DNA from: Terriglobia bacterium
Lineage (GTDB): Bacteria > Acidobacteriota > Terriglobia > Acidiferrales > UBA7541
Reading direction: 5' to 3'
Assembly (NCBI GenBank): GCA_963695545.1
Contig: OY968796.1
Coordinates: 2,464,001 to 2,528,000, forward strand
DNA: 64,000 nucleotides
Made by a program: the position numbers and the translations under genes. This document shows positions 47,418 through 62,706 of this stretch, piece by piece. Position 1 is the first letter of the stretch. Each line of letters opens with the position of its first letter. The notes under the pieces were generated by a model. The model had not been told where the DNA came from. It made no database searches and saw only the letters and a list, made by a program, of their open reading frames with translations.

Positions 47418-48623
47418 TTACTGCGGCCAGACGCGCAGCAGCACCACGCTGTGCGCGGTCAGGGTCGCGGTGTATGAGCCGGACATCGTGCCGAGATCTT
47501 TGCCGGCCCAGAGATCGCGCACTTTCACATTGCCCGTGATACCGAGCTTCGCGAAATCCACCGAGAAGGTCATCAATCCCTGCTGGCGATTGAACATGGC
47601 CACGGCTTGCGATCCATCGGCCATGGGCTTGGACCAAATTTCCATCGGTCCTTCGGCCCACACGCGATCGCCTTGCTTGCCGGCGGGATCCTGATCGACG
47701 GCGATGACGTCGCGATTGGTGAGCAGCGCGATGGTTTCCGGCGACATCGTGGAAAGATCGTTACCGGAAAGCAGCGGCGCGGCGAGGATCGCCCAGAGAC
47801 TCATGTGCGTTTTGTATTCGTCGGTGGTCATGCCGCCGTTGCCGACTTCGAGCATGTCGGGATCGTTCCAGTGGCCGGGGCCGGCGTATTTCGAGAGGCC
47901 GGCTTGCTCGAAGCCGATGGTTTCCATGCGCGCGTAGTGATCGTTGATGTCGCCGGTGGTGCGCCACAGATTCGCGCCGGCCGCGGGAGCCCATTGCCAC
48001 ACGGCGCCGTCGCCGTATTGGCAGAAGCTATAGACCATCGGGCGGCCGGTTTTTTTGATGGCGTCGCGCATCTTGACGTAGGCGTCGACCATCATTTGTT
48101 GCGCGGCCGCGGGCGTGGCGGCGGTTTTCATTACGTCGCGAAAACTGCAGAGATCGTATTTCAAATAGTCGATTCCCCAATTTGCGTAAGTCTGAGCGTC
48201 CTGATCTTCATGATTGAGGCTGCCCTCGAAGCCCGCGCAGGTTTTGGCGCCGGGGCTCGAGTAGATGCCGAGCTTCAATCCTTTGCTGTGCACGTAGTCG
48301 GCGAGAGCTTTCATGTCCGGGAATTTGCTGTTCGGCTGGATATTGCCTTGGGCGTCGCGATCGCCTTCCCAAGTGTCGTCGATGTTGATGTAGACGTAGC
48401 CGGCGTCGCGCATGCCGCTCGAGACCATGGCGTCGGCCTGCGCGCGAACGGTGGCATCGTCAATTTTGCGCGCGAAATGATTCCAACTGTTCCAGCCCAT
48501 CGGCGGCGTGGCGGCGACCTGCGGGGATTGCGCGCGAACGGGCGACGAAAGGCACAAAACGAGAATCAAAAGTGCGGAAGCCACTCCAAATGCACGCAAC
48601 GCGGCGTGCCTAATCCGATTCAT
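47418..48623 (-). CDS. Glycoside hydrolase family 27 alpha-galactosidase, secreted
   Basis: TPPMGWNSWN, NIDDTW, IDYLKYDLC, WRTTGDI, WNDPDMLEVGN. Start taken at MNRIR. Confidence 0.92.
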   Translation of the reverse strand: MNRIRHAALRAFGVASALLILVLCLSSPVRAQSPQVAATPPMGWNSWNHFARKIDDATVRAQADAMVSSGMRDAGYVYINIDDTWEGDRDAQGNIQPNSKFPDMKALADYVHSKGLKLGIYSSPGAKTCAGFEGSLNHEDQDAQTYANWGIDYLKYDLCSFRDVMKTAATPAAAQQMMVDAYVKMRDAIKKTGRPMVYSFCQYGDGAVWQWAPAAGANLWRTTGDINDHYARMETIGFEQAGLSKYAGPGHWNDPDMLEVGNGGMTTDEYKTHMSLWAILAAPLLSGNDLSTMSPETIALLTNRDVIAVDQDPAGKQGDRVWAEGPMEIWSKPMADGSQAVAMFNRQQGLMTFSVDFAKLGITGNVKVRDLWAGKDLGTMSGSYTATLTAHSVVLLRVWPQ

Positions 48624-48929
48624 TATTTTTCTCCCTCGAAATGCAGGCCGATCGCCGCGTGGCGCGAACGGTTCGGCGTGGTCTGACTGGCGCATCATAT
48701 CACTGCTGGTCTCGGCGCGAAGCAATCAGCCATTGGACTGAGTGCGCGACGGTTTTTGCCGGATAGCATCTTCATGTAGAGTAGACACCCGCGGATCGAC
48801 GCTCGACGGACGAAGCAACGCGTTTCGCGCGGGCCGGTTGGCTCGGCGGAACGCGTCACGCGGATCGGCAATGGCGTGGCTGATCGGAAATGTTTCTGAA
48901 TGGCCGACGCAGATGTGCAACGGAGAGGC

Positions 48930-50084
48930 ATGACTTCAGCATTCGATCTGCTCGAAAAATTTCGCAGAAAATTCGGCGGCGACGCGCGCGTGTTTCGCGC
49001 GCCGGGCCGCGTGAACCTGATCGGCGAATACACCGATTTCAACGATGGCTTTGTGATGCCCGCGGCCATCGGCCGAAACTGCTGGGTGGCTGCCGGGCCG
49101 CGCTCGGATCGCAAGCTGGTGATTCGTTCCGAAGATTTTTCGGAGACGTACGAATGGGATTTCGCTTCGGGCGATCCGGCGGGAACCGGCACGTGGAGCG
49201 ACTATCCGGTGGGCGTTGCGGTAATGCTGCGGAGAGGCGGCGCGGCACTCGGCGGAGCGAATCTGTTGATCGAAGGCGACGTGCCGATCGGGGCTGGCCT
49301 TAGCTCTTCGGCGGCCATCGAAGTGGCCACCGGCTACGCGCTATTGGACACCTCAGGATTGCCGGTCAACGGCCTGGAGCTTGCGCGCGTGTGCCAGCGC
49401 GCGGAGAACGGATTCGTCGGGGCGCGCACCGGGATCATGGACCAATTCGCTTCCGTGTTCGGGCGGGCGGGCCACGCGATCGTGCTGGATTGCCGCTCGC
49501 TCAACTATGAGCTGGCGCCGATTCCGAGTTCGGTGCACCTGGTGATATGCAATACGATGGTGAAGCACGAGAACTCGTCGGGAGAATACAATTTGCGGCG
49601 GGCACAATGCGAAGAGGCGGTGGTGCGTCTGGCTGCGTTTTATCCGGGGATCACCGCGCTGCGCGACGTGACGATCGAGCAGCTGGATCGGCAACGCGAC
49701 GCGTTGCCAGAGGTCGTTTACCGGCGGGCGGCGCATGTGGTGGCTGAAGACGCGCGGGTCCTGGCGGCCGTCGAAGCGCTTGCCGCGGGCGATCTTGTGG
49801 CGTTCGGCGAGCGCATGGCCGAATCGCACGAGAGTTTGCGGATGTTGTTCGAGGTCAGTTCGCCGGAGCTGGATGTGATGGTGCAGTTGGCGAATCGACA
49901 GCCGGGCGTATTCGGTGCGCGCATGACCGGTGGGGGATTCGGCGGCAGCACGATCAATGTGGTCGAAGCAGGAACGGCGGAGCGCTTTGCCGCGAACATG
50001 ACGCGGGCCTACGAAGAAGCGACCGGCCGGCGTCCCGATATTCAGATATGCGATCCTGGGCCGGGCGCGGGGCGCGCGGACTGA
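48930..50084 (+). CDS. galK: Galactokinase
   Basis: APGRVNLIGE.TDFNDG, PIGAGLSSSAA, GIMDQ, GARMTGGGFGG. Confidence 0.95.
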   Translation: MTSAFDLLEKFRRKFGGDARVFRAPGRVNLIGEYTDFNDGFVMPAAIGRNCWVAAGPRSDRKLVIRSEDFSETYEWDFASGDPAGTGTWSDYPVGVAVMLRRGGAALGGANLLIEGDVPIGAGLSSSAAIEVATGYALLDTSGLPVNGLELARVCQRAENGFVGARTGIMDQFASVFGRAGHAIVLDCRSLNYELAPIPSSVHLVICNTMVKHENSSGEYNLRRAQCEEAVVRLAAFYPGITALRDVTIEQLDRQRDALPEVVYRRAAHVVAEDARVLAAVEALAAGDLVAFGERMAESHESLRMLFEVSSPELDVMVQLANRQPGVFGARMTGGGFGGSTINVVEAGTAERFAANMTRAYEEATGRRPDIQICDPGPGAGRAD

Positions 50085-50108
50085 GCGCGGCCGACCGAAT
50101 ACATATAT

Positions 50109-51155
50109 ATGGATGACCAATTTCTAAGCGAAACTCCCCACCGGCGCTTCAACCCGCTGACGCGCGAATGGGTGCTGGTTTCGCCGCATCGAGCGAAGCG
50201 GCCGTGGCTCGGCAAAGTGGAAGCGGCGCCGACCGGACGCGAGCCGGAGTACGATCCGACCTGCTACTTGTGTCCGACGAACGCTCGGGCCGAGGGCGTT
50301 CATAACCCCGACTACAAAGCTACCTTCGTCTTTGACAACGATTTCCCGGCGCTTCTGCCTGATGCGCCGCCGGGGGCGGTGGACGAAGGCGGCCTGATCG
50401 TGGCGCGCACGGAAGCGGGTCGCTGCCGCGTGGTGTGTTTTACTCCGCGGCACGATCTGACGATTCCGCGCATGTCGATCGAAGAGATTCGGCGGGTCGT
50501 CGAGACATGGGCCGATCAGTACAGCGAGCTGGGCGGCCTGCCGTATGTGCGACACGTGCAAATTTTTGAAAACCGCGGCGCCTTGATGGGCGCGAGCAAT
50601 CCGCATCCGCATTGCCAGATATGGGCCGAAGCGGAATTGCCGAATGTGCCGGCGAGCGAACAAGAGTCTTTGCGCGAATATCGAGATCGGCAGCGCGGCT
50701 GCATGTTGTGCCGCTATCTTGAACTGGAGCTCGCGCGGCAGGAGCGCATCGTGTGCGCGAACGAAGGCTTCGTGGCGCTCATGCCGTTCTGGGCGGTGTG
50801 GCCGTTTGAGACCATGGTGCTGAGCCGGCGGCACGTGGCAAGTCTGGTTGATCTAAGCGATTCGGAAAGATATTTGCTCGCGGATTTGCTGCGGCGATTG
50901 ACGACTCGCTACGACAATTTGTTTGAATCGCCGTTTCCGTACTCGATGGGTTTTCATCAGAGCCCGACGGACGGCGAACCACACCCGGAGTGGCATCTGC
51001 ATGCGCACTACTTTCCGCCGCTATTGCGCTCGGCGACGGTGCGAAAATTTATGGTGGGCTACGAGCTGCTCGGGACGCCGCAGCGCGACCTGACTCCGGA
51101 AAGCGCGGCCGAGCGCCTGCGCGACCTCAGCGAAACGCATTACCTCGATCGATAA
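50109..51155 (+). CDS. galT: Galactose-1-phosphate uridylyltransferase
   Basis: [49 protein letters not shown]. Confidence 0.96.
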
Positions 51156-51265: not shown

Positions 51266-54200
51266 TTAGTTTGTCGAAGCCGCGTCAATGTTGAGCGTGA
51301 TGTTCGTGGAACTCGTGGCAAGTACGGTGCTCCCTGTGCCGGTCACGGTGATGAGGTACTGCCCCGTTGGCGTGCCGGTGGTTGTGGTCGCGGCGGTCTT
51401 ATGGCAAGACGCTAGCGCCATGCCCATGGCGACCACCACGGCGACGGCCATGCCGAATCGCGCGAACGCGCCACGCCGCTGCTTCCTTATCCCATCGATC
51501 AGCAGTGCGCAGAGGATGACTAACGCTACGAGAATTCCGCCGAACGCCCCGAACGTATCGAACGGAGCGCCGCCGACCGGCGGCGTGAGTCGCGACGTCG
51601 TTGTGGGTGCGACGGTGGAGATCGACAGGGAAACGGTCGCGGTGGTAGTGCCGGGCGTGACCGTCGGCGGCGTAAACGTGCAGACAGACTCCGCCGGCAG
51701 GGTCGTGAGATTACAAGTCAGCGTAACCGCCGTTGAGTAATTACCCTCGGGTTCGACAGCGATAAGGTACAGGCCATTCTGACCCACCGTGACGGTTTGC
51801 GTCGTCGGGATTGCGGAAATGGCGAAGCTCGCCGCGCCAACCGTTTGCGTGAGCGGCGTCGAAGTCGTGCTCGCATCGTCCAAAGCGTCGCCGGAATAAT
51901 TGGCGTTGATCGTATATGTACCGAGCGCGAGGGACGAAACCATGGCCGACGCCACGCCATCGGGCTGCAAAGTTCCCTGGCCAAGAGTCGTGGCCGGATT
52001 CGTCGATGAGTTCACGAACGTCACCGTTCCGGTTGGCGTGCCCCCGACTTGTGGCGTGACGGTTGCCGTGAACGTAACCGGCCCGCCCAGGAAACCCGGG
52101 TTTGGCGCCGAGGTAAGCGTGACGGACGTCGTCTGTGGTCCGATCTGTATCGGCAAGGTCGCAGACACGCTCGACGCGGTGTTGGCGTCGCCGCCGTATG
52201 TGGCCGTGATGGAATGCGGACCGGGAACGAGCGTCGAGATCGCGAAGGTTGCCACGCCGGTCACGCCCACGGTATGTACCGGTACAGAGCCGAGTGTGGT
52301 CGAGCCATCCGCAAATGTCACTAAACCAGTGGGGATTTCCGCGCCGGCCGGCGTCACCGTCGCTGTGAACGTGATGCTGGAGCCTGCCGTATTCGGATTG
52401 CCCGCGTTCGAGGTGAGCACCGTCGATGTGGCTTCGGGAATGATCGTGAACTCATAAGCCGTGATGCTGCCGATCAACGGGCTGCTCAAACCATTTGCGG
52501 TGGCGGCCTGCGCGTCTGCGGCGAATGCGTAAAGAATGTGCGCACCGACGCCAATCGCCCCGGTCCCGCCGGAAAACGAGTTGCCGCCTCCAGTGGCCGC
52601 AAGCCACGGCCCTTGCCAAGTATCCACTTGGAAATAGACGTCAGCCACGGCGGGCGCATTGGGAGCGAACGTACTTGCCGTCGTGAAGTTAAACGTCGGG
52701 GCGCCGATGAACTGATTGCCGGCGAGCGGCGCAATCGTCGTGGTGAGGGGAACCGCTTGCGCGCCGGCCTCGGGAAACACGCTCACGTTGCCGCTCGTCG
52801 TATTTGAAACGAAGACCGTGTTCGTGATGGGATTCACGACGATGCCGGAGGGAGAATTGCCGGCGGCGACAGTGCTTACGGAGTTAGTCGCCCCGTCGAT
52901 CACGGTCACAGTGGAGCCGAAAGAATTTGCGACGTAGATCTTGTTCGTCACGGGATTGACGGCCACGGCCACGGGGCTCGAGCCCGTCGGCACGGTGGCG
53001 GTGCCGTTGGTCGCACCGCTGATGACCGTCACGTTGTTGCTGCCTTGATTGACGACGTAAATCATGTTGGTGATGGGATTGACAGCCACGGCGACGGCTC
53101 CGCTTCCGACCGCTACAGTGGCGGTGGTATTCGTGGCGCCATTGATCACCGTGACGGTTCCATCTTCGTTCGCCACGTAAATTCTGTTGGTCACCTGGTT
53201 CACGGCCACGGCGGTCGGATCGGCTCCAACGCTTACGGTGGTTGCGACGTTCGTCGCTCCGCTCACGACCGTGACGTCGTTGCTCAGCTCGTTCACGACA
53301 TAGACGTTGTCGCTTACCGGATTCACGGCCACGGCGACGGGTTTGGTTCCGACGGGCACCTGGACCGTCGAATTCGTCGCTCCGTTAATGACCGTGATGC
53401 TGTTGCCCTGTTCGTTCGCGACATAGATTTTGTCGGTCAAGGGATTCGCGGCCAGGGCCGTCGGTTCGCTTCCGACCGGGCCGATGGGCACATTTATGGC
53501 CGTATTCGTGGTCGCATTGATTGCCGTCACGCTAGCGCTATTCAGATTCGCGACGTAGATCTCGCTGGTCAAGGGGTCGTCGGCGACGGCGATGGGATTC
53601 GATCCGACTGGGATGGTCGCCGCGATGGCATTGGTGCGCCCGTTGAACACGGTCACACTCTGGCTGCCGAAGTTTGCCACGTAGACCTGATTTGTCGCCG
53701 GGTCCGCCGCACCGGCCAGAGGGTCGCTCCCAACCGTTGCGAGCGTTGGAGTGTTGGTCGCACCGTCGATCACGGTGACGATGTTGGTGCCCAGATCCGC
53801 CACGTAAATCTTGTCCATCGTGGAGTTCACGGCTACCGCGTGGGGGCCCGCGCTCGTGGTCAACGTCGCGGTCACAGCATTCGTCGCTCCGCTGATCGCG
53901 GACACCGAGCCGTTGCTGTTGCTGTAGTTCGCGACGTAAATCTCATTGGTCGTTGCGTTCACGGCCATAGCGGAGGGCGAAGGCCCAATCCCGGCTCCCG
54001 AGATCGTCGCCGAAACGCTATTCGTCGCCCCGCTGATTACGGAGACGCTCCCGGCGCCTCCAGAATTCGCCACGTAGATCACGTTCGAGACCGGGTTCAC
54101 AGCCACGGCGGCGGGACTCGATCCGACCGGTACGGATGTCGTGCCGTCCGTCGATCCGTTGATGACCGTAACGCTGTTTCCGCCCTGATTAGCGACATAG

Positions 54201-54967
54201 ATCGTATTCGTGATTGGGTTCACGGCGACGGCTACCGGGCCGCTGCCGGTGACCACGGTCCCCGAGAGGGAATTGCTCGCGCCATTGACTATGGTGACGC
54301 CGCCGGCACCGCCATTTTGAGTCGCCACGTACACTAGATCCGTTACCGGGTCCACGGCCAAAGATGTGGGTTCGCTGCCGGCAGCCAATATCAGACTTGT
54401 GGCGACAGCTGCCGTTACGGCCGGTGTGTCCGATGCGCCGTTGATAATCGTGACGCTTCCGGTGCCGGCGATCTCGTCGGCCACGAAGACTATGTTGGTG
54501 GCGGCATCCACCGCTATGGCGTTGGGCGCGCTTCCCGCGGGAAGTGTGAGGGTCGTGGTGGCATTCGTGGGCCCGTCGATCACCGTCACGGTGCCGCTGC
54601 CGAGGTTGGCGACGTAAATCTGGTTGGTTACTGGGTCCACGGCGATGGCGTCGGGGCTCGATCCGGTGGAGACGCTGACGATGTTGTTTGTCGCGCCATC
54701 GATGACCGTCACGGAACCCGCGTTCTGATTCGCGACGTAGATCTTGTTTGTGACCGGGTTCACCGCCACGGCGTAGGGAGCGGCTCCGGAAAATACGCTG
54801 GTTGTGACCGTTTGCGCGCGAGCGCATGGGGCCGCCACCAGCGCGCAGAACACCAATCCTAAAATGGCGATCTCGACTGCAATCTTGCTGGCAATATCGT
54901 GAACCATCCTCGAACTGTCGCGAAGGTGGTTTCTGGCATAGCTTCCGGAAATCATTTCTGTCGGCAC
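51266..54967 (-). CDS. Large surface protein: 16 YVTN-type beta-propeller repeats, Ig-like (Big_3) domains, and a C-terminal TM/lipobox tail
   Basis: 16 copies of P.AVAVNP.TN.IYVAN..SVTVI.GATN, two TFTATVT..PTG.VTF..Y.GD Ig repeats, and a signal peptide. True start may be ATG 54907. Confidence 0.88.
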   Translation of the reverse strand: MPTEMISGSYARNHLRDSSRMVHDIASKIAVEIAILGLVFCALVAAPCARAQTVTTSVFSGAAPYAVAVNPVTNKIYVANQNAGSVTVIDGATNNIVSVSTGSSPDAIAVDPVTNQIYVANLGSGTVTVIDGPTNATTTLTLPAGSAPNAIAVDAATNIVFVADEIAGTGSVTIINGASDTPAVTAAVATSLILAAGSEPTSLAVDPVTDLVYVATQNGGAGGVTIVNGASNSLSGTVVTGSGPVAVAVNPITNTIYVANQGGNSVTVINGSTDGTTSVPVGSSPAAVAVNPVSNVIYVANSGGAGSVSVISGATNSVSATISGAGIGPSPSAMAVNATTNEIYVANYSNSNGSVSAISGATNAVTATLTTSAGPHAVAVNSTMDKIYVADLGTNIVTVIDGATNTPTLATVGSDPLAGAADPATNQVYVANFGSQSVTVFNGRTNAIAATIPVGSNPIAVADDPLTSEIYVANLNSASVTAINATTNTAINVPIGPVGSEPTALAANPLTDKIYVANEQGNSITVINGATNSTVQVPVGTKPVAVAVNPVSDNVYVVNELSNDVTVVSGATNVATTVSVGADPTAVAVNQVTNRIYVANEDGTVTVINGATNTTATVAVGSGAVAVAVNPITNMIYVVNQGSNNVTVISGATNGTATVPTGSSPVAVAVNPVTNKIYVANSFGSTVTVIDGATNSVSTVAAGNSPSGIVVNPITNTVFVSNTTSGNVSVFPEAGAQAVPLTTTIAPLAGNQFIGAPTFNFTTASTFAPNAPAVADVYFQVDTWQGPWLAATGGGNSFSGGTGAIGVGAHILYAFAADAQAATANGLSSPLIGSITAYEFTIIPEATSTVLTSNAGNPNTAGSSITFTATVTPAGAEIPTGLVTFADGSTTLGSVPVHTVGVTGVATFAISTLVPGPHSITATYGGDANTASSVSATLPIQIGPQTTSVTLTSAPNPGFLGGPVTFTATVTPQVGGTPTGTVTFVNSSTNPATTLGQGTLQPDGVASAMVSSLALGTYTINANYSGDALDDASTTSTPLTQTVGAASFAISAIPTTQTVTVGQNGLYLIAVEPEGNYSTAVTLTCNLTTLPAESVCTFTPPTVTPGTTTATVSLSISTVAPTTTSRLTPPVGGAPFDTFGAFGGILVALVILCALLIDGIRKQRRGAFARFGMAVAVVVAMGMALASCHKTAATTTTGTPTGQYLITVTGTGSTVLATSSTNITLNIDAASTN

Positions 54968-55719: not shown

Positions 55720-57390
55720 ATGCCCGCTGAACTGACTTCGTTTCCATCCCGCCGAAAATTTATGCAGGGACTGGCCGCGGGCGCCGCTGCTTTGCCCTCG
55801 GCAGATTTGCTCGCGCGCGACGTGCCGACTGCGAAGGCGCCGCAAGGCGCTGCCGCCGCTTCGGCCGGCGCCGCGGGCGCCGCGGGCACGGCGAACTCCG
55901 GATGCATTTACAACGTGACCGCTTTCGGCGCCGTGGGCGACGGGAAAATGCTCAACACCGCCGCGATTCAGGCCGCGATCGACGCGTGCGCTAAGGCGGG
56001 GGGCGGAACCGTGCTGGTTCCTCCGGGCGTTTTTCTCACCGGTCCGCTATTTCTCAAGAGCCACATCGTGTTTGAAGTCGTCGCTGGGGCGACCCTGCTG
56101 GGCAGCGCGAACTTCAGCGACTACCCGACGATCGCGGGCCGTTGGGAAGGATTGGATCGAACGGTCTTCGCATCTCTCTTGACCGGGATGGACCTTGAAA
56201 ACGTAACCATCCAGGGTCGCGGCACGCTTGATGGACAAGGCCCAGTGTGGTGGGACGCTTTCCATAAGACCACGGCCCTGCGGCGGCAGATGAACTTGAT
56301 GGAGCGCGAGCCGGAAAATCCTCCGGGCTCGCCGCTGGCTTGGCCGCGCGCGCGCATGATCAATTTGTACCGCTCGAAGAACATCGTCATCCGCGATCTC
56401 TCCATCGTGAATTCGCCTTCGTGGAATATCCATCCGGTGGATTGCGAGAACGTGCTGATTGACGGTGTGAGTATCGTCAATCCCAAGATGTCTCCGAACA
56501 CCGACGGCATCGATCCGGAATCCTGCCGCAATGTGCGCATCTCAAACTGCTACATTTCGACTGGCGACGATTGCATCGTGATCAAATCGGGCTACAAGTA
56601 CATCGCCGATCATCCGTTCGGCGTGTGCGAGGATATCGCCGTAACGAATTGCGTTTTCGGATACGGACACGCGGGCGTTGGCATTGGCAGCGAAACCGCG
56701 GGCGGCGTGCGCAACGTCACCTCCAGCAATTGCGTTTGCGACGGCACGGCACGCGGTCTTTATATTAAGACGGCGCGTGGACGCGGCAACGTGATTGAGG
56801 ACATTCGCGCCGTCAACTGGGTGATGCGAAATATCGAGCAGGAGCCGGTGATGGTGACGCTCGTCTACCAGGGAAGTGGTGACCCCGCTAAGGCCATGCC
56901 CGTCGACGCCACCACGCCCACCGTGCGCAACGTCTATTTCTCAGGCGTGACGGCACGAACCTCGAAGCGCGCCATCGCGATCGAAGGTTTGGCTGAGAGC
57001 CCGATCCAAAACGTGTATCTTCGCGACATCGTTATCGAGTCGTCCGCCACGGGAGCGGATTGCACACGGGCCTCGGGCGTTACGTTTGAAAACGTGATCG
57101 TAAACGCTGATGGCGGGCCGTCGCTCTCAGCGAGCGATACCCGCGACCTCGACGTGCTTCGCTTTCGCACCAACAAAGCGAATCCGGGCCAGCCCGTGAT
57201 TCAATTGAACGGCGTGCAGGATGCGGTGGTGGAATCGTGCTCGGCTGCGCCTGGCAACGACGTGCTCGTGGAAGTGGCGGGGACCGAGAACGAAAACGTG
57301 CAGTTGCTTCGGAATCGCATCAATCCGGGCGGCACGCCGGTTTCCTTCGCCGGCGGCGCAGCCGAGAGCGTTGTCACGCGGCGCGATTGA
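55720..57390 (+). CDS. Glycoside hydrolase family 28 polygalacturonase-like, Tat signal
   Basis: SRRKFMQ, YNVTAFGAVGDG, SPNTDGIDP, TGDDCIVIKSG, GHAGVGIGSE. Confidence 0.92.
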   Translation: MPAELTSFPSRRKFMQGLAAGAAALPSADLLARDVPTAKAPQGAAAASAGAAGAAGTANSGCIYNVTAFGAVGDGKMLNTAAIQAAIDACAKAGGGTVLVPPGVFLTGPLFLKSHIVFEVVAGATLLGSANFSDYPTIAGRWEGLDRTVFASLLTGMDLENVTIQGRGTLDGQGPVWWDAFHKTTALRRQMNLMEREPENPPGSPLAWPRARMINLYRSKNIVIRDLSIVNSPSWNIHPVDCENVLIDGVSIVNPKMSPNTDGIDPESCRNVRISNCYISTGDDCIVIKSGYKYIADHPFGVCEDIAVTNCVFGYGHAGVGIGSETAGGVRNVTSSNCVCDGTARGLYIKTARGRGNVIEDIRAVNWVMRNIEQEPVMVTLVYQGSGDPAKAMPVDATTPTVRNVYFSGVTARTSKRAIAIEGLAESPIQNVYLRDIVIESSATGADCTRASGVTFENVIVNADGGPSLSASDTRDLDVLRFRTNKANPGQPVIQLNGVQDAVVESCSAAPGNDVLVEVAGTENENVQLLRNRINPGGTPVSFAGGAAESVVTRRD

Positions 57391-57431
57391 AGGATCCTTC
57401 GGTCGCGCACATGAGGCAGAACGACATCGTC

Positions 57432-59081
57432 ATGCAAGATAAAGTGCTGCGCCTTGACCCTCGGGACACAGTCATCATCGCGCTCAGCGATTTGAAGCAG
57501 GGCGAATCGGTCGGCGTCGATGGCGAGACGTACATTCTCGCGACCGACGTCTCAGCGAAACACAAATTCGCCGCAAAGGCCTTCGCGCCCGGCGATCCCA
57601 TCTTTATGTACGGCGTGATGGTCGGGCGAGCGTCAGCGCCGATTCGCCAAGGCGAATCCATCACCACGTTCAACATCCGGCACGACGCTGCCGCTTTCCA
57701 CGAAGAATCCGACGCTTTCCACTGGCAGGCGCCGGACGCATCGAAATGGAAATCGCGGACCTTCGCCGGCTACCTGCGCTCGGATGGGCAGGTGGGCACA
57801 CGCAACTACTGGCTGGTCGTGCCGCTGGTGTTTTGCGAGAACCGAAATCTGTTGGTATTGAAACAGGCGTTTGAAGAGGAGTTGGGTTTCGCCGCGCCGC
57901 AGATTTACCGGCGCTACGTGGCCGATCTGATCGGACTCTATCGCGCGGGTAAAACGGGCGAGGTCCGCAATTTTCGTTTCTCCAAGAGTCTGGAGCATGC
58001 CGCCACGCCGCCGGTTTTCGAGAACGTGGATGGGATCAAATTTCTGCTGCACCAGGCGGGCTGCGGCGGCACGCGCGAAGACGCGGAGAATCTGTGCGGT
58101 TTGCTGGCCGATTACATCCACCATCCGAACGTTGCCGGTGCGACGGTACTGAGTCTCGGCTGTCAGCACGCCCAAGTGTCGATTCTTCAGGAGCAGATCG
58201 CGCGGCGCGCGCCGAAGCTCGGGAAGCCGCTTTACATTTTCGAGCAGCAGCGCAGCCCGTCGGAATCGGCCATGTTGTCGTCAGCGATTCAGAAGACGTT
58301 TCTCGGATTAGTCGAAGCCGATCAGGCGCGACGCGCCCCGGCTGCGTTGTCGCATTTGTGCGTGGGCCTGAAGTGCGGCGGCTCGGACGGATTCTCCGGC
58401 ATCTCCGCCAATCCGGCCGTGGGGCACGTCGCGGATTTGCTCGCCGCGCTGGGCGGACGCGGGATACTTTCGGAATTTCCCGAGCTGTGCGGCGTCGAGC
58501 AGGAATTGATTCATCGCGCCGCGCGCAAGGAAGTAGGAGATCGGTTCATCCAATTGATGCGCGATTACGCCGCGCGCGCCAAAGCCGTGCGTTCGAGCCT
58601 GGATATGAATCCTTCCCCCGGCAACATTCGCGATGGATTGGTCACCGATGCGATGAAGTCGGCGGGCGCGGCGAAAAAAGGCGGCACGTCGCCAGTAACC
58701 GCCGTGCTCGATTATCCCGAGTACTCGAGCGAGCCGGGCCTGAATCTTCAGTGCACGCCCGGCAGCGACGTGGAAGCTGTGACCGCGCAAGTGGGAGCGG
58801 GCGCAAACGTCGTCCTGTTCACCACGGGCCTGGGCACACCGACCGGCAATCCCATCGCACCGGTGATCAAGATTTCCTCGAACACGCCGCTGGCGCAACG
58901 CATGGGCGACATCATCGACTTCGACACCGGCGCGATCGTCACCGGCGAGGAAACCATCGAGCAGGCCGGCGAAGCGTTGTTCGATTACGTGCTGAAGGTC
59001 GCTTCCGGCGAAGCGCGCACCAAAGCCGAAATTCTTGCGCAGGACGATTTCATTCCCTGGAAGAGAGGAGTTTCCCTTTGA
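57432..59081 (+). CDS. uxaA: UxaA-family (altronate) dehydratase
   Basis: N-terminal SAF domain, GQVGTRNY, GCGG, LGCQ, KCGGSDGFSGISANP, NPSPGN..GL, FTTGLGTP. Alternative start at 57411. Confidence 0.88.
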   Translation: MQDKVLRLDPRDTVIIALSDLKQGESVGVDGETYILATDVSAKHKFAAKAFAPGDPIFMYGVMVGRASAPIRQGESITTFNIRHDAAAFHEESDAFHWQAPDASKWKSRTFAGYLRSDGQVGTRNYWLVVPLVFCENRNLLVLKQAFEEELGFAAPQIYRRYVADLIGLYRAGKTGEVRNFRFSKSLEHAATPPVFENVDGIKFLLHQAGCGGTREDAENLCGLLADYIHHPNVAGATVLSLGCQHAQVSILQEQIARRAPKLGKPLYIFEQQRSPSESAMLSSAIQKTFLGLVEADQARRAPAALSHLCVGLKCGGSDGFSGISANPAVGHVADLLAALGGRGILSEFPELCGVEQELIHRAARKEVGDRFIQLMRDYAARAKAVRSSLDMNPSPGNIRDGLVTDAMKSAGAAKKGGTSPVTAVLDYPEYSSEPGLNLQCTPGSDVEAVTAQVGAGANVVLFTTGLGTPTGNPIAPVIKISSNTPLAQRMGDIIDFDTGAIVTGEETIEQAGEALFDYVLKVASGEARTKAEILAQDDFIPWKRGVSL

Positions 59082-59875
59082 TTCCGGCCGATCTTGCGAA
59101 GCAGGATTTTCGACTGGATGGAAAGACCGCCGTCGTCACCGGCGGCGCCCGGGGAATCGGGCGAGCGATTGTGCGCACGTTTGCCTCGCGAGGCGCGCGC
59201 GTGGCGATTTTGGATCTCGATCAAGCCGGAGCCGAGGACGCCGCGCGTGAAGCGGGAGGCGAGAGCGCCGGCGTCGTGGCCTACCGCTGCGACGTCGGCG
59301 ATGCGGAAAGTGTGCGCAGCGCTTTCGCCCAAATTCTTTCTCGCGGCGCGCTGCACATTCTCGTGAACAACGCCGGAATCGCGTTCATCGGCGATCTCGA
59401 GAAAACCGAGGAAAAGGACATCGACGCGTTGTATCGCGTCAACGTCAAGAGCGTCTATCTGTGCATGCGCGAATGCATCGGCCATATGAAAAAGAATGGC
59501 GGCGGCGTGATCCTCAATATGGCTTCGATCGCGGCCACCGCCGGGATCGACGAACGCTTTGCATACTCAATGACCAAGGGCGCGGTGCGCGCGATGACCT
59601 TGTCGGTCGCCCGGGATTACATCCGCGACAAGATTCGCTGTAATTGCGTGTCTCCGGCGCGAGTGCACACCCCATTCATCGATAATTATGTAAAAAAGCA
59701 ATATCCCGGCCGCGAGAAAGAAATGATGGAGCGCTTGTCGATGGCGCAGCCCATCGGCCGCATGGGCGATCCGCAGGAGATCGCCATGCTCGCTCTATTC
59801 CTTTGCTCGGACCAGGCTGCGTTCATCACCGGCGCTGATTATGTGATCGACGGAGGGTTCCTTACGGTTCGCTGA
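59078..59875 (+). CDS. SDR oxidoreductase (2-keto-3-deoxy-L-fuconate dehydrogenase-like)
   Basis: TGGARGIG, NNAG, RFAYSMTKG, PARVHTPF, QPIGRMG. TTG 59078 overlaps the uxaA stop. Confidence 0.85.
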   Translation: MIPADLAKQDFRLDGKTAVVTGGARGIGRAIVRTFASRGARVAILDLDQAGAEDAAREAGGESAGVVAYRCDVGDAESVRSAFAQILSRGALHILVNNAGIAFIGDLEKTEEKDIDALYRVNVKSVYLCMRECIGHMKKNGGGVILNMASIAATAGIDERFAYSMTKGAVRAMTLSVARDYIRDKIRCNCVSPARVHTPFIDNYVKKQYPGREKEMMERLSMAQPIGRMGDPQEIAMLALFLCSDQAAFITGADYVIDGGFLTVR

Positions 59876-59892
59876 CGGCCTCGACGCGATTC

Positions 59893-60750
59893 ATGACCCG
59901 ACTTGACGCTCACCAGCACTTCTGGAAATACCACGCGCCGGAATTTTCCTGGGTTACGGACGATATGGCTGTGCTGCGCCGCGATTTTCTGCCCGAAGAA
60001 TTCGCGCGCGAGCTTGCCGCAAACGGCATGGATGCGTCGATCGCCGTGCAAGCCAGCCAGAGCGAGAAGGAAACCTCGTTTCTTCTGAATCTCGCGGTCA
60101 TGCACAGCAGGATCGCCGGCGTGGTCGGCTGGGTGGACCTGCGCTCCGCGAACGTGCGCGAGCATCTGCGCGAATTTTCGCGCTACGATAAATTGCGCGG
60201 CTTCCGTCACATCGTGCAATCGGAGCCGGATGATCGCTTCCTGCTTCGAGAAGATTTTCTGCGCGGCCTCGCGTGCTTGAAGGAATTCAATTTCACGTAT
60301 GACATCCTGATTTATCCCAAACAATTGCCCGCCGCCGTTGAACTCGTCCGGCGCATGCCCAAGCAGCCTTTCGTAGTGGACCACGTCGCGAAGCCGCTCA
60401 TCAAATCGAAAGAGATCGATTCCTGGGCCCGCCGGATGCGCGAGATCGCCGCCGGCCCGAATGTCTATTGCAAAGTGTCCGGCCTGGTCACCGAAGCGGA
60501 TTGGAGTCACTGGCGCCCCGAGGATTTCGCGCCCTATCTCGACGTGGTTTTTGACGCCTTCGGTCCGGATCGCCTGATGTTCGGTTCGGACTGGCCCGTG
60601 TGCCTGATCGCCGGAACCTACAGCCAGGTGAAGCAGCTGATCCAGGATTACGTCGCCAAGCGCTTTAGTGCGGACAGTCAGAGGCAGAACGTCGAGCGGG
60701 CGATTTTCGGTGAAACCGCGGCACGTTTTTATGGGATTCAATCGGCATGA
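59893..60750 (+). CDS. Amidohydrolase-family sugar lactonase (L-fuconolactonase-like)
   Basis: DAHQHFW, GVVGWVDL, GFRH, VDHVAKP, CKVSGL, MFGSDWPVC. Confidence 0.88.
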   Translation: MTRLDAHQHFWKYHAPEFSWVTDDMAVLRRDFLPEEFARELAANGMDASIAVQASQSEKETSFLLNLAVMHSRIAGVVGWVDLRSANVREHLREFSRYDKLRGFRHIVQSEPDDRFLLREDFLRGLACLKEFNFTYDILIYPKQLPAAVELVRRMPKQPFVVDHVAKPLIKSKEIDSWARRMREIAAGPNVYCKVSGLVTEADWSHWRPEDFAPYLDVVFDAFGPDRLMFGSDWPVCLIAGTYSQVKQLIQDYVAKRFSADSQRQNVERAIFGETAARFYGIQSA

Positions 60751-60901
60751 TGATTTCTTTAGTGGCGCGCAGGGACCGCCCTGGTCGCAATGACGACCCG
60801 GGTATTGAGCGGCAATCCTGGGTTGCGCGAAAACACCGTTCGGAGGTAGCGTGAAGGTTTCGCCGCCTCGCAGGAGCGGCGTTATCGATCCCCGAGCCGC
60901 T

Positions 60902-61234
60902 ATGAGCCGACGCTGCTGCTTGGCCTTGGACCTAAAGGACGATCCGCAGCTCATCGCGGAATACAAGAAACACCACCAGAAGGTCTGGCCGGAGATCCTC
61001 GAGAGCATCAAGGGTTCCGGCATTGAGAACATGGAGATCTACCTGCTCGGCACACGCATGTTCATGATTATGGACGTGAACGACGGTTTTTCGTTCGAAT
61101 CCAAGGGCGCCGCCGATCGTTCCAACCCTAAAGTCGTCGAATGGGAGCGCTTGATGTGGAAATTTCAGCAGCCGCTTCCGCAGGCCAAGCCTGGCGAGAA
61201 GTGGCTTCTGATGGAGCGCGTCTTTAAGCTCTAG
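60902..61234 (+). CDS. L-rhamnose/L-fucose mutarotase family protein
   Basis: LALDLKDDPQLIAEYKKHH..VWPEI..GIENMEIY..WERLMWKFQ. Confidence 0.85.
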   Translation: MSRRCCLALDLKDDPQLIAEYKKHHQKVWPEILESIKGSGIENMEIYLLGTRMFMIMDVNDGFSFESKGAADRSNPKVVEWERLMWKFQQPLPQAKPGEKWLLMERVFKL

Positions 61235-61260
61235 CGGCCTTGTACCGGGAGGGCAAGCCG

Positions 61261-62706
61261 ATGCCATTCATCAATGAGGATTTTCTGCTAGGCACCAAGA
61301 AGGCGCAACGCTTGTACCACGATTTCGCCGAAGGCGAGCCCATCCTCGATTATCACAATCATCTTCCGCCGGAGGATATCGCCAGCGACCGGAAATTCAC
61401 GAATCTGTTCGAGATTTGGCTCGAGGGCGACCATTACAAATGGCGCGCGATGCGGGCCAACGGCGTATCCGAGCGCTACTGTACCGGCGATGCCACGCCG
61501 ATCGAAAAATTTCAGGCCTGGGCCCGCACCGTCCCGCACACCCTGCGCAATCCGCTCTATCACTGGACGCACCTCGAGCTTAAGCGCTATTTCGGCATCA
61601 ACGAACTTCTCGACGAGCGCAACGCGCAAAAAGTGTGGGATCGCGCGGGCGAAATACTTGCGAGCGGGGAATTGACGGCGCGGCGTATCCTGCGGCGCTT
61701 TCGCGTACAGGCGCTCTGCACCACCGACGACCCGTGCAGCGATCTCGCCGCGCACAAGGAGATCGCGCGAACTGAATCGGCTTTCCGTGTGTACCCGGCG
61801 TTTCGCCCCGACAAAGCGCTGATCGTGCACTCGCCCGAGCCGTTCAACGCCTGGGTGGATCGCCTGGCCGCCGTGAGCAACGTGCACGTCGCGTCTCTCA
61901 ACGATTTTCTGCGCGCCATCGAGCTGCGTCACGATTATTTCCACGCCGCGGGCGGGCGCCTTTCCGATCACGGCTTGGACACCTGCTTTTCCGATTTCCC
62001 CGCGGAAGCCGAAGCCGCGCGCATTTTCGATCGCGCGCGCGCGGGGCACGCGGCCACGCCGGAAGAATATCGCCAGTTCGCTTCCTTCATGATGCTCTAC
62101 TTCGGCCGGCTGGACGCGGAAAAGGGCTGGACCAAGCAGTTGCATCTGGGCGCGCTGCGCAACGCCAGCACGCGCGGCGTGCGTTTGGTCGGGCCGGATT
62201 CGGGTTTCGATTCCATCGGCGATTGGGAGCAGGCCCGCTCGCTGTGCTTGTATCTCGATCGGCTGGACACTGAGAACGCGCTGCCCAAAATGGTCGTCTA
62301 CAATTTGAATCCTGCGGACAATTATGTGTTCGCAACCGCCATGGGGAATTTCCAGGACGGCTCGATCGCGGGGAAAATGCAGTTCGGCAGCGGCTGGTGG
62401 TATCTCGATCAGAAGGAAGCCATCGAATGGCAGCTGAATGCGGTGTCCAATGTCGGATTGCTTTCGCGTTTCGTCGGCATGCTCACGGATTCGCGGTCCT
62501 TCATGTCGTTCCCGCGCCATGAATATTTTCGACGCGTGTTGTGCAATCTGATCGGCCGCGACGTCGAGGCCGGCGAATTGCCTGACGACGATTCGCTGCT
62601 CGGGCCGATGATCCGCAACATCTGTTTCGGCAACGCCCGGGATTATCTGGGTCTCGAATTGCCCAGCGCTGCCGCGGTGCGCGGAGAAAAAGTCGGAGTT
62701 CGCTAG
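61261..62706 (+). CDS. uxaC: Glucuronate (uronate) isomerase
   Basis: PILDYHNHL, GDHYKWRAMRANG, NPLYHWTHLEL, CTTDDP, GSGWWY, GMLTDSRSF.S.PRHEYFRR. Confidence 0.96.
   Translation: MPFINEDFLLGTKKAQRLYHDFAEGEPILDYHNHLPPEDIASDRKFTNLFEIWLEGDHYKWRAMRANGVSERYCTGDATPIEKFQAWARTVPHTLRNPLYHWTHLELKRYFGINELLDERNAQKVWDRAGEILASGELTARRILRRFRVQALCTTDDPCSDLAAHKEIARTESAFRVYPAFRPDKALIVHSPEPFNAWVDRLAAVSNVHVASLNDFLRAIELRHDYFHAAGGRLSDHGLDTCFSDFPAEAEAARIFDRARAGHAATPEEYRQFASFMMLYFGRLDAEKGWTKQLHLGALRNASTRGVRLVGPDSGFDSIGDWEQARSLCLYLDRLDTENALPKMVVYNLNPADNYVFATAMGNFQDGSIAGKMQFGSGWWYLDQKEAIEWQLNAVSNVGLLSRFVGMLTDSRSFMSFPRHEYFRRVLCNLIGRDVEAGELPDDDSLLGPMIRNICFGNARDYLGLELPSAAAVRGEKVGVR

Follow-up and report, generated by a model that had tools for sequence, protein, structure and literature searches.

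The bacterial lipoprotein enzymes Lgt and LspA are held to act on N-terminal signals, in which a small residue at position –1 is a feature of the signal peptidase II cleavage site. In chaperone-usher and type V pili, a strand donated by another chain completes an immunoglobulin (Ig)-like fold that would otherwise be incomplete. Here we describe the C-terminal tail of a large, predicted exported protein that resembles both systems. Its gene lies in the window analysed here, a 64,000-nucleotide stretch of a bacterial genome (contig OY968796.1, positions 2,464,001 to 2,528,000; positions given below count from its first letter). Two predicted membrane helices, placed between strands E and F, interrupt the Ig-like domain that forms the tail, an anatomy that is well supported, and the second helix ends in a Cys. 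We consider it probable that the tail acts as a lipoprotein signal of internal position: its end piece, once lipidated, would complete the Ig fold and thereby keep the passenger at the membrane.

Canonical lipoproteins, which depend on Lgt, LspA, Lnt and the Lol system, share with the tail a basic stretch, a hydrophobic helix, a small –1 residue, an invariant Cys and a flexible Gly/Ser/Thr tether, and all three enzymes are encoded in the source genome. Their signal is N-terminal, however, whereas here over 1100 residues come before it, in a protein that appears to have its own N-terminal signal, and a predicted stop-transfer helix precedes it. In addition, lipidation would here yield a piece of 46 residues that stays attached to the passenger without a covalent bond. 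Donor-strand complementation in pili likewise completes an incomplete Ig fold with a strand from a separate chain, as is proposed for the tail; but here the two strands would derive from the passenger's own gene and bear a lipid, and there is no sign of polymerisation.

Among C-terminal sorting tags, MYXO-CTERM (TIGR03901) and its partner MrtX invite comparison. According to the report on this system (PMC11980579), the tag has the order Cys, helix, basic cluster, with no lipobox defined and with its topology inverted, and Lgt is the leading candidate for the proposed lipidation, with cleavage afterwards. Both tags are C-terminal, have an invariant Cys and are proposed to be lipidated and then cleaved. 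The MYXO-CTERM passenger, however, keeps the Cys covalently, whereas the order here is helix-basic-helix-Cys and the Cys would leave with the C-terminal piece. The TIGR03901 model gave a weak match in 2 of 107 aligned tails (best E 0.018). Helix 1 and the basic cluster resemble the helix-and-basic-tail end of GlyGly-CTERM, PEP-CTERM and LPXTG proteins; but these end at the basic cluster, whereas here ∼70 more residues continue through a second helix. LPXTG matched weakly in 2/107 tails (best E 0.041), and no strong GlyGly-CTERM, PEP-CTERM or LPXTG match appeared among the 25 of 67 families listed, the GlyGly-CTERM and PEP-CTERM tag models lying outside those 25. No T9SS family was among those shown for the tail, the T9SS machinery itself not having been searched for. 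T-Mac (PMC11833123) was tried as a precedent and rejected, as it has an ordinary N-terminal signal.

The open reading frame (ORF) of the carrier protein, at 51266–54967 on the minus strand, encodes 1233 aa counted from a GTG start; the database form begins at Met21 and has 1213 aa. A signal-peptide-like N-terminus is followed by YVTN propeller repeats (TIGR02276, 13 stretches; 15 motif copies by regular expression), two Big_3_5 domains (PF16640, two stretches, best 854–940) and a beta-rich Ig half-domain of 74 residues (1046–1119). Then come a Pro-rich linker, helix 1 (1139–1157), a basic loop (1161–1170), helix 2, the motif L-A-S-C, a Thr linker and two terminal strands. The best 19-residue Kyte-Doolittle (KD) window listed for helix 1 was 2.47, and the KD hydropathy of helix 2 was 1.97. 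The N-terminal Sec signal was called by eye and hydropathy alone. The earlier note on this DNA, made from the letters only, had described a transmembrane helix, the loop RKQRRGAFAR, a second helix and L-A-S-C with its Cys codon at 51404–51406, and this layout was confirmed. It had placed the Cys about 40 aa from the C-terminus; the residue is Cys1188, and 45 residues follow it. The features, all on the minus strand, are as follows.

51266..54967, minus strand: gene of the YVTN-propeller/Ig-like protein with the tail; 1233 aa (1213 aa from Met21)
54815..54907, minus strand: predicted N-terminal Sec signal peptide, residues 21–51, ending A-R-A; from sequence and hydropathy
52772..54811, minus strand: YVTN beta-propeller repeats, the passenger, limits approximate; from TIGR02276 and regular expression
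51842..52408, minus strand: pair of Big_3_5 Ig-like domains, the second with an approximate limit; from PF16640
51611..51832, minus strand: N-terminal part of the split Ig domain, strands A–E, with a Cys pair; from homology to intact repeats, model strands 2–72
51557..51610, minus strand: Pro/Thr-rich linker before helix 1, of low model confidence; from the model and the alignment of tails
51497..51553, minus strand: hydrophobic helix 1, predicted stop-transfer from outside to inside; from hydropathy, model helix 93–117
51458..51487, minus strand: basic loop RKQRRGAFAR, predicted cytoplasmic, equivalent to an n-region; net positive in all aligned tails
51416..51457, minus strand: hydrophobic helix 2, equivalent to an h-region; from hydropathy, model helix 122–141
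51404..51415, minus strand: lipobox-like L-A-S-C with the Cys1188 codon at 51404–51406; sole invariant column of 107 tails
51377..51403, minus strand: Thr-rich tether that follows the Cys (most homologues have a Gly-rich one); from sequence and alignment
51284..51376, minus strand: strands F and G, which end the split Ig domain; model strands 157–167 and 173–183, Ig match over model range 1–183
51290..51640, minus strand: match to NCBIfam NF058595 (invert_tail), model positions 1–111 of 113; from a profile match

That the tail is a split domain was indicated by intact homologous repeats. In two loci of relatives, L031 (2491–5208) and L032 (979–3483), tandem repeats of ∼102 residues were found to correspond to the first 74 residues of the tail joined directly to its last two strands. 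A profile of the N-half (A1, 21 rows), which carries no hairpin or Cys information, was searched against 61 genomes of the class; 35 matched, and 150 of 215 matches were listed. Local re-search of 30 loci and 94 further stretches, leaving out 3 listed matches in earlier loci and the 65 unlisted ones, yielded 155 distinct domains covering most of the profile. In 97 of these, a hairpin of two helices divided the domain, at the same loop each time, and the other 58 were intact Ig repeats. The automatic classes were 100 split, 51 intact and 4 other; three of the 'split' domains were judged intact by eye, and the four 'other' were counted as intact. At least four split rows are training rows of A1, and a few are near-duplicates. 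A Cys ended helix 2 in 97/97 split domains, although these had been chosen blind to it, so the invariance that the earlier note had put forward for testing was upheld.

A full-tail profile searched against 1.84 billion representatives gave 33,214 proteins at E up to 0.001, in which tails and intact repeats are mixed. Among the best 150 of these, 28 repeat proteins were detected to carry a split copy, in every case as their final Ig domain and with the Cys; the filter used missed at least two more that were visible by eye. In a set of 28 homologues examined at the N-terminus, 20 had a strongly hydrophobic segment within the first 60 residues, and several of the others look truncated. A tree of the 155 N-halves (73 columns, unfinished search) contained 12 changes between split and intact forms, on which no claim of a single origin is made. 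Sequence and homology show where the insertion lies, that its Cys is invariant, that its loop is basic and that the tail is terminal. The best match to the full-tail profile, P0030, showed 69 matched stretches, and P0032, P0036, P0069 and P0070 carry the intact Ig repeat in long arrays with quite different C-termini, some of them giving the impression of being archaeal.

The AlphaFold2 model of the tail, built on the 107-row alignment, predicted that the two halves fold together into one Ig domain. Mean pLDDT was 85.9, with 88–97 in the strand blocks; strands extended up to residue 72, helices were placed at 93–117 and 122–141, and two further strands at 157–167 and 173–183. In VIA-align, 97 residues over model range 1–183 matched residues 404–502 of 1eut_A, the Ig domain of Micromonospora sialidase, with Z 12.7 and an rmsd of 1.8 Å. 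Because the N-half accounts for only ∼75 residues, this match implies that the terminal strands belong to the same Ig domain. The same sialidase ranked first in Foldseek (E 6.8e-4). Hence the suggestion in the earlier note that the terminal strands supply what the upstream Ig half lacks agrees with the intact repeats, the AlphaFold2 model and the fold search. When the N-half and the post-Cys peptide were predicted as two chains, a score of 0.52 was obtained against a best control of 0.00, with at least 97% of contacts shared between runs and a partner pLDDT of at least 67. This result lends weak support, given that the mark used was reached by 116/157 solved complexes and 2/215 mismatches, at or below 0.60 by 18/157 and both mismatches, and that halves of an Ig fold may pass the test through likeness to solved structures.

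The Cys was the only invariant column among the 107 aligned tails. Residue –1 was Gly, Ala or Ser in 106/107 tails, compared with 60 of 136 control Cys residues taken after hydrophobic stretches in the six-frame ORFs of the genome, a crude control that includes spurious ORFs. By an automatic picker, the same residues were found at –1 in 95/97 split domains, with one mis-pick. A PROSITE-style lipobox pattern fitted 84/107 tails and 49/136 control Cys residues, and the carrier's own L-A-S-C fits the strict form of the lipobox. The hairpin loop was net positive in 107/107 tails, the median distance from the last Lys or Arg to the Cys was 18 residues, a median of 43 residues followed the Cys, and Asp was found at +2 in none of the 107. 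In five homologues (L047, L050, L162, P0023 and P0156) a whole extra domain was observed between the Cys and strand F, a choice-of-anchor D domain in P0023, which would give a putative lipopeptide of 125–150 residues. Since whole extracellular-type domains can sit there, the post-Cys part behaves like a mature lipoprotein. Judged from these sequence features, the residue looks like a lipoprotein Cys.

The reading that we favour, and hold to be the likelier course of events, is that Lgt lipidates the Cys, LspA cuts before it and the 46-residue lipopeptide is kept as strands F–G; the lipidation, the cleavage, the removal of the hairpin and the destination are all inferred. First, the passenger would be exported by Sec. 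Helix 1 would then stop transfer and helix 2 would re-enter the membrane with signal-peptide topology. If the protein bears an N-terminal signal and its passenger lies outside, helix 1 has to run inward and helix 2 outward, with the loop cytoplasmic by the positive-inside rule. This arrangement would give helix 2 the topology of a lipoprotein signal and put both Ig halves, together with the Cys, on the outer face of the inner membrane. There, housekeeping Lgt would add diacylglycerol, LspA would cut before the Cys and Lnt may N-acylate it, after which the lipopeptide would remain bound as strands F–G. In the last and least certain step, a general membrane protease would remove the leftover hairpin, and the complex could move outward. 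For the enzymes required, it was found that the source genome encodes one Lgt, one LspA and one Lnt, each above the cut-off of the family searched, and two LolA-like genes.

Several points weigh against this reading. The weak point is that helix 1 would still tether the passenger once LspA had cut, unless another protease acts, and the linker and helix 1 of the aligned tails showed no conserved cleavage motif. Literature searches, with subscription journals and supplements outside their scope, returned neither a published study testing the tail nor a precedent for Lgt and LspA acting on an internal lipobox; in the myxosortase preprint (10.1101/2023.06.07.544157), the strings 'Acidobact', 'lipoprotein' and 'invert' are absent. 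The lipobox is looser than the textbook form, as the strict pattern [LVI][ASTVI][GAS]C fitted 27/94 only. Trp stands at –3 in 19/107 tails; in 61 N-terminal lipoprotein-like ORFs, crudely listed, it was not among the seven commonest –3 residues. Kinship among the homologues means that their counts do not represent independent events. The N-half modelled alone kept a pLDDT of 90.5 while two short strands lost their strand assignment, and because the pLDDT stayed at this value, the model gives no sign of unfolding or instability. Finally, the single-chain model is already closed, so the Ig fold can close without cleavage.

This last point suits the alternative that survives best, an uncut two-helix anchor in the inner membrane, around whose insertion the Ig domain folds and whose Cys is lipidated by Lgt without cleavage, disulfide-bonded or otherwise modified. 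Both hairpin helices are hydrophobic enough to span a membrane (median best 15-residue KD of 2.35 and 2.43), and neither a second cleavage motif nor a dedicated protease, among five profiled, came to light. Nevertheless, one helix would suffice for such an anchor, and it leaves unexplained both the small –1 residue in nearly every tail and the constant retention of two Ig strands after the Cys. We regard it as rather unlikely.

A lower probability is given to a dedicated lineage-specific enzyme other than LspA (a myxosortase-like CPBP protein, a rhomboid or a member of an unknown family) that cuts at or close to the Cys or attaches the chain to a lipid; like MYXO-CTERM or GlyGly-CTERM, the tail would then belong to a sorting system complete in itself. 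As with sorting signals, the tail is confined to a lineage and present in several copies, the Trp at –3 departs from the usual lipobox, and the source genome has 3 rhomboid and 5 CPBP genes. However, all three rhomboids scored 28–34 bits on TIGR03902 (rhombosortase; cut-off 84), so that none reached its cut-off, and the 4 of 5 CPBP proteins that were scanned scored 23–35 bits on Mrt_core (cut-off 100). The 3 rhomboids and 2 of the CPBP proteins were profiled over the 61 class genomes at strict thresholds, with single-protein queries that can miss orthologues; the other 3 CPBP proteins, both LolA-like genes and all other families lay outside this profiling. None of the five tracked the family pattern of the tail at these thresholds. 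Rhomboids 1 and 2 were nearly class-wide (56/61 and 60/61 genomes); rhomboid 3 was present in families that lack the tail and was not found at E 1e-40 in the tail-rich family f11. One CPBP protein was found only in the family of the source genome, and the other was patchy. Thus the dedicated peptidase that the earlier note had hoped to detect by phylogenetic profiling did not turn up among 5 of the 8 candidates. The order basic, helix, Cys is moreover that of a lipoprotein signal and the reverse of MYXO-CTERM, as described in PMC11980579.

It is very improbable that the lipopeptide, once cut by LspA, leaves the passenger or swaps into the incomplete Ig domain of another molecule, thereby linking chains or acting as a release switch: interchain strand complementation is established for pili, and the Cys pair of the N-half (85/97 split against 15/58 intact domains) may stabilise the N-half alone, but split domains were the source of the search profile, which biases this contrast, and no convincing free-standing gene for a signal plus strands F–G was found among the short ORFs examined in 32 regions, which were contig edges, broken remnants and small complete proteins.

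Returning to the tail itself, the earlier note had called it an undescribed sorting signal, which did not hold. The last 194 residues of the carrier matched NCBIfam NF058595, 'lipo-invert putative C-terminal anchoring domain-containing protein' (release 20.0), with 46.9 bits against a cut-off of 37 (E 3e-12, positions 1–111 of 113); this family was listed for the scan of the 194-aa tail, not for that of the whole 1233-aa protein. The carrier tail scored 49.2 bits in the genome search, and all 107 aligned tails matched at E up to 1. The match ends no more than ∼7 residues before the stop codon of a large carrier with an N-terminal hydrophobic, signal-like segment. The carrier tail therefore belongs to an NCBI-catalogued family of putative C-terminal anchors and is not undescribed. 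The name of the family already proposes a C-terminal anchor with a lipoprotein link, as read here; but the model begins at the end of strand E and leaves the upstream Ig half out, so the model itself misses the split domain. The neighbouring accession NF058596 is an unrelated family without a match to the tail. NF058595 exceeded its cut-off on the intact-repeat proteins L031 (76.3 bits) and L032 (51.5 bits), which have no hairpin; it therefore over-calls 'lipo-invert' proteins.

Six matches to NF058595 were obtained in the source genome at E up to 0.001, three of them above the cut-off, and the N-half profile gave 2 matches only. A filter for helix, basic loop, helix and Cys, applied to the six-frame ORFs of the genome, gave four hits, three of which were these above-cut-off tails; the pattern therefore exceeds chance. 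Profile and filter together answer the question of paralogues raised in the earlier note with a count of three tails. A phmmer search of the genome ORFs with the single carrier tail recovered only itself, and the paralogues needed a profile. In the third paralogue (G000:C1:3838536-3843029) the N-half is diverged and the terminal strands are atypical, and the Cys and hairpin are kept.

In relatives, NF058595 was above cut-off in 29 of 41 genomes, a count to which intact Ig repeats may also contribute. The phylum survey found it in 19/201 genomes, 18 of them in the class of the source genome, and the sole match outside the class covered model positions 80–112 only; in family f11, 16/16 genomes matched. 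A class survey of 48 genomes found full tails in families f1 (2/2) and f7 (6/6), and no full tail in the 40 genomes from eight other families, of which 2 had partial strand matches. No match to the tail was found in the plasmid collection. Full-length tails were thus found only in some families of the source genome's own class. Source names on 3 of 28 homologues (two 'Terriglobia', one 'Acidobacteriaceae') indicate that this class is probably Terriglobia, and they fit the remark in the earlier note on similar acidobacterial tails. The tail is real, conserved and lineage-restricted.

Altered or reduced forms also occur. Many relatives hold apparent broken tail remnants (L034–L041, L046, L172–L175 and L178) with in-frame stops, frameshifts or a missing N-half, which suggests frequent gene turnover. 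In L043 (G010:C29), a frame of 724 aa has two profile matches that overlap at its C-terminus, suggesting a duplicated hairpin segment. L182 and L185 are proteins of ∼345–370 aa built from a signal and two repeats, one intact and the other split. Within the window, the carrier gene is convergent with genes at 47418–51155 that we take to serve galactose use (alpha-galactosidase, galK, galT), and it lies upstream of genes at 55720–62706 that presumably serve pectin/uronate use; both labels are putative and come from the translations. Inspection by eye of unannotated ORF lists revealed no obvious partner next to the other two tail genes or next to lgt, lspA or lnt.

Because NCBI already catalogues the family as a putative anchor, what would be new is the mechanism of the tail rather than its existence. 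Tentatively, and with less confidence than in the lipoprotein reading itself, the tail may represent a general, sortase-free surface-display route of one acidobacterial lineage: housekeeping lipoprotein enzymes would process the internal signal, the hairpin would be lost and a lipopeptide that gives two strands to the last Ig domain would hold proteins as long as ∼4000 residues. If Lgt and LspA process an internal signal, the rules for lipoprotein prediction would need widening. If the proposal is true, each of these genes would encode its own non-covalent lipid anchor, Lgt and LspA would be shown to process internal signals, and a split Ig domain that brings its own lipid anchor would serve as a compact tool for display. 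In several families of a class that is probably acidobacterial, a genome would then have up to ∼15 adhesin-like proteins and large enzymes whose location and mode of anchoring are accounted for.

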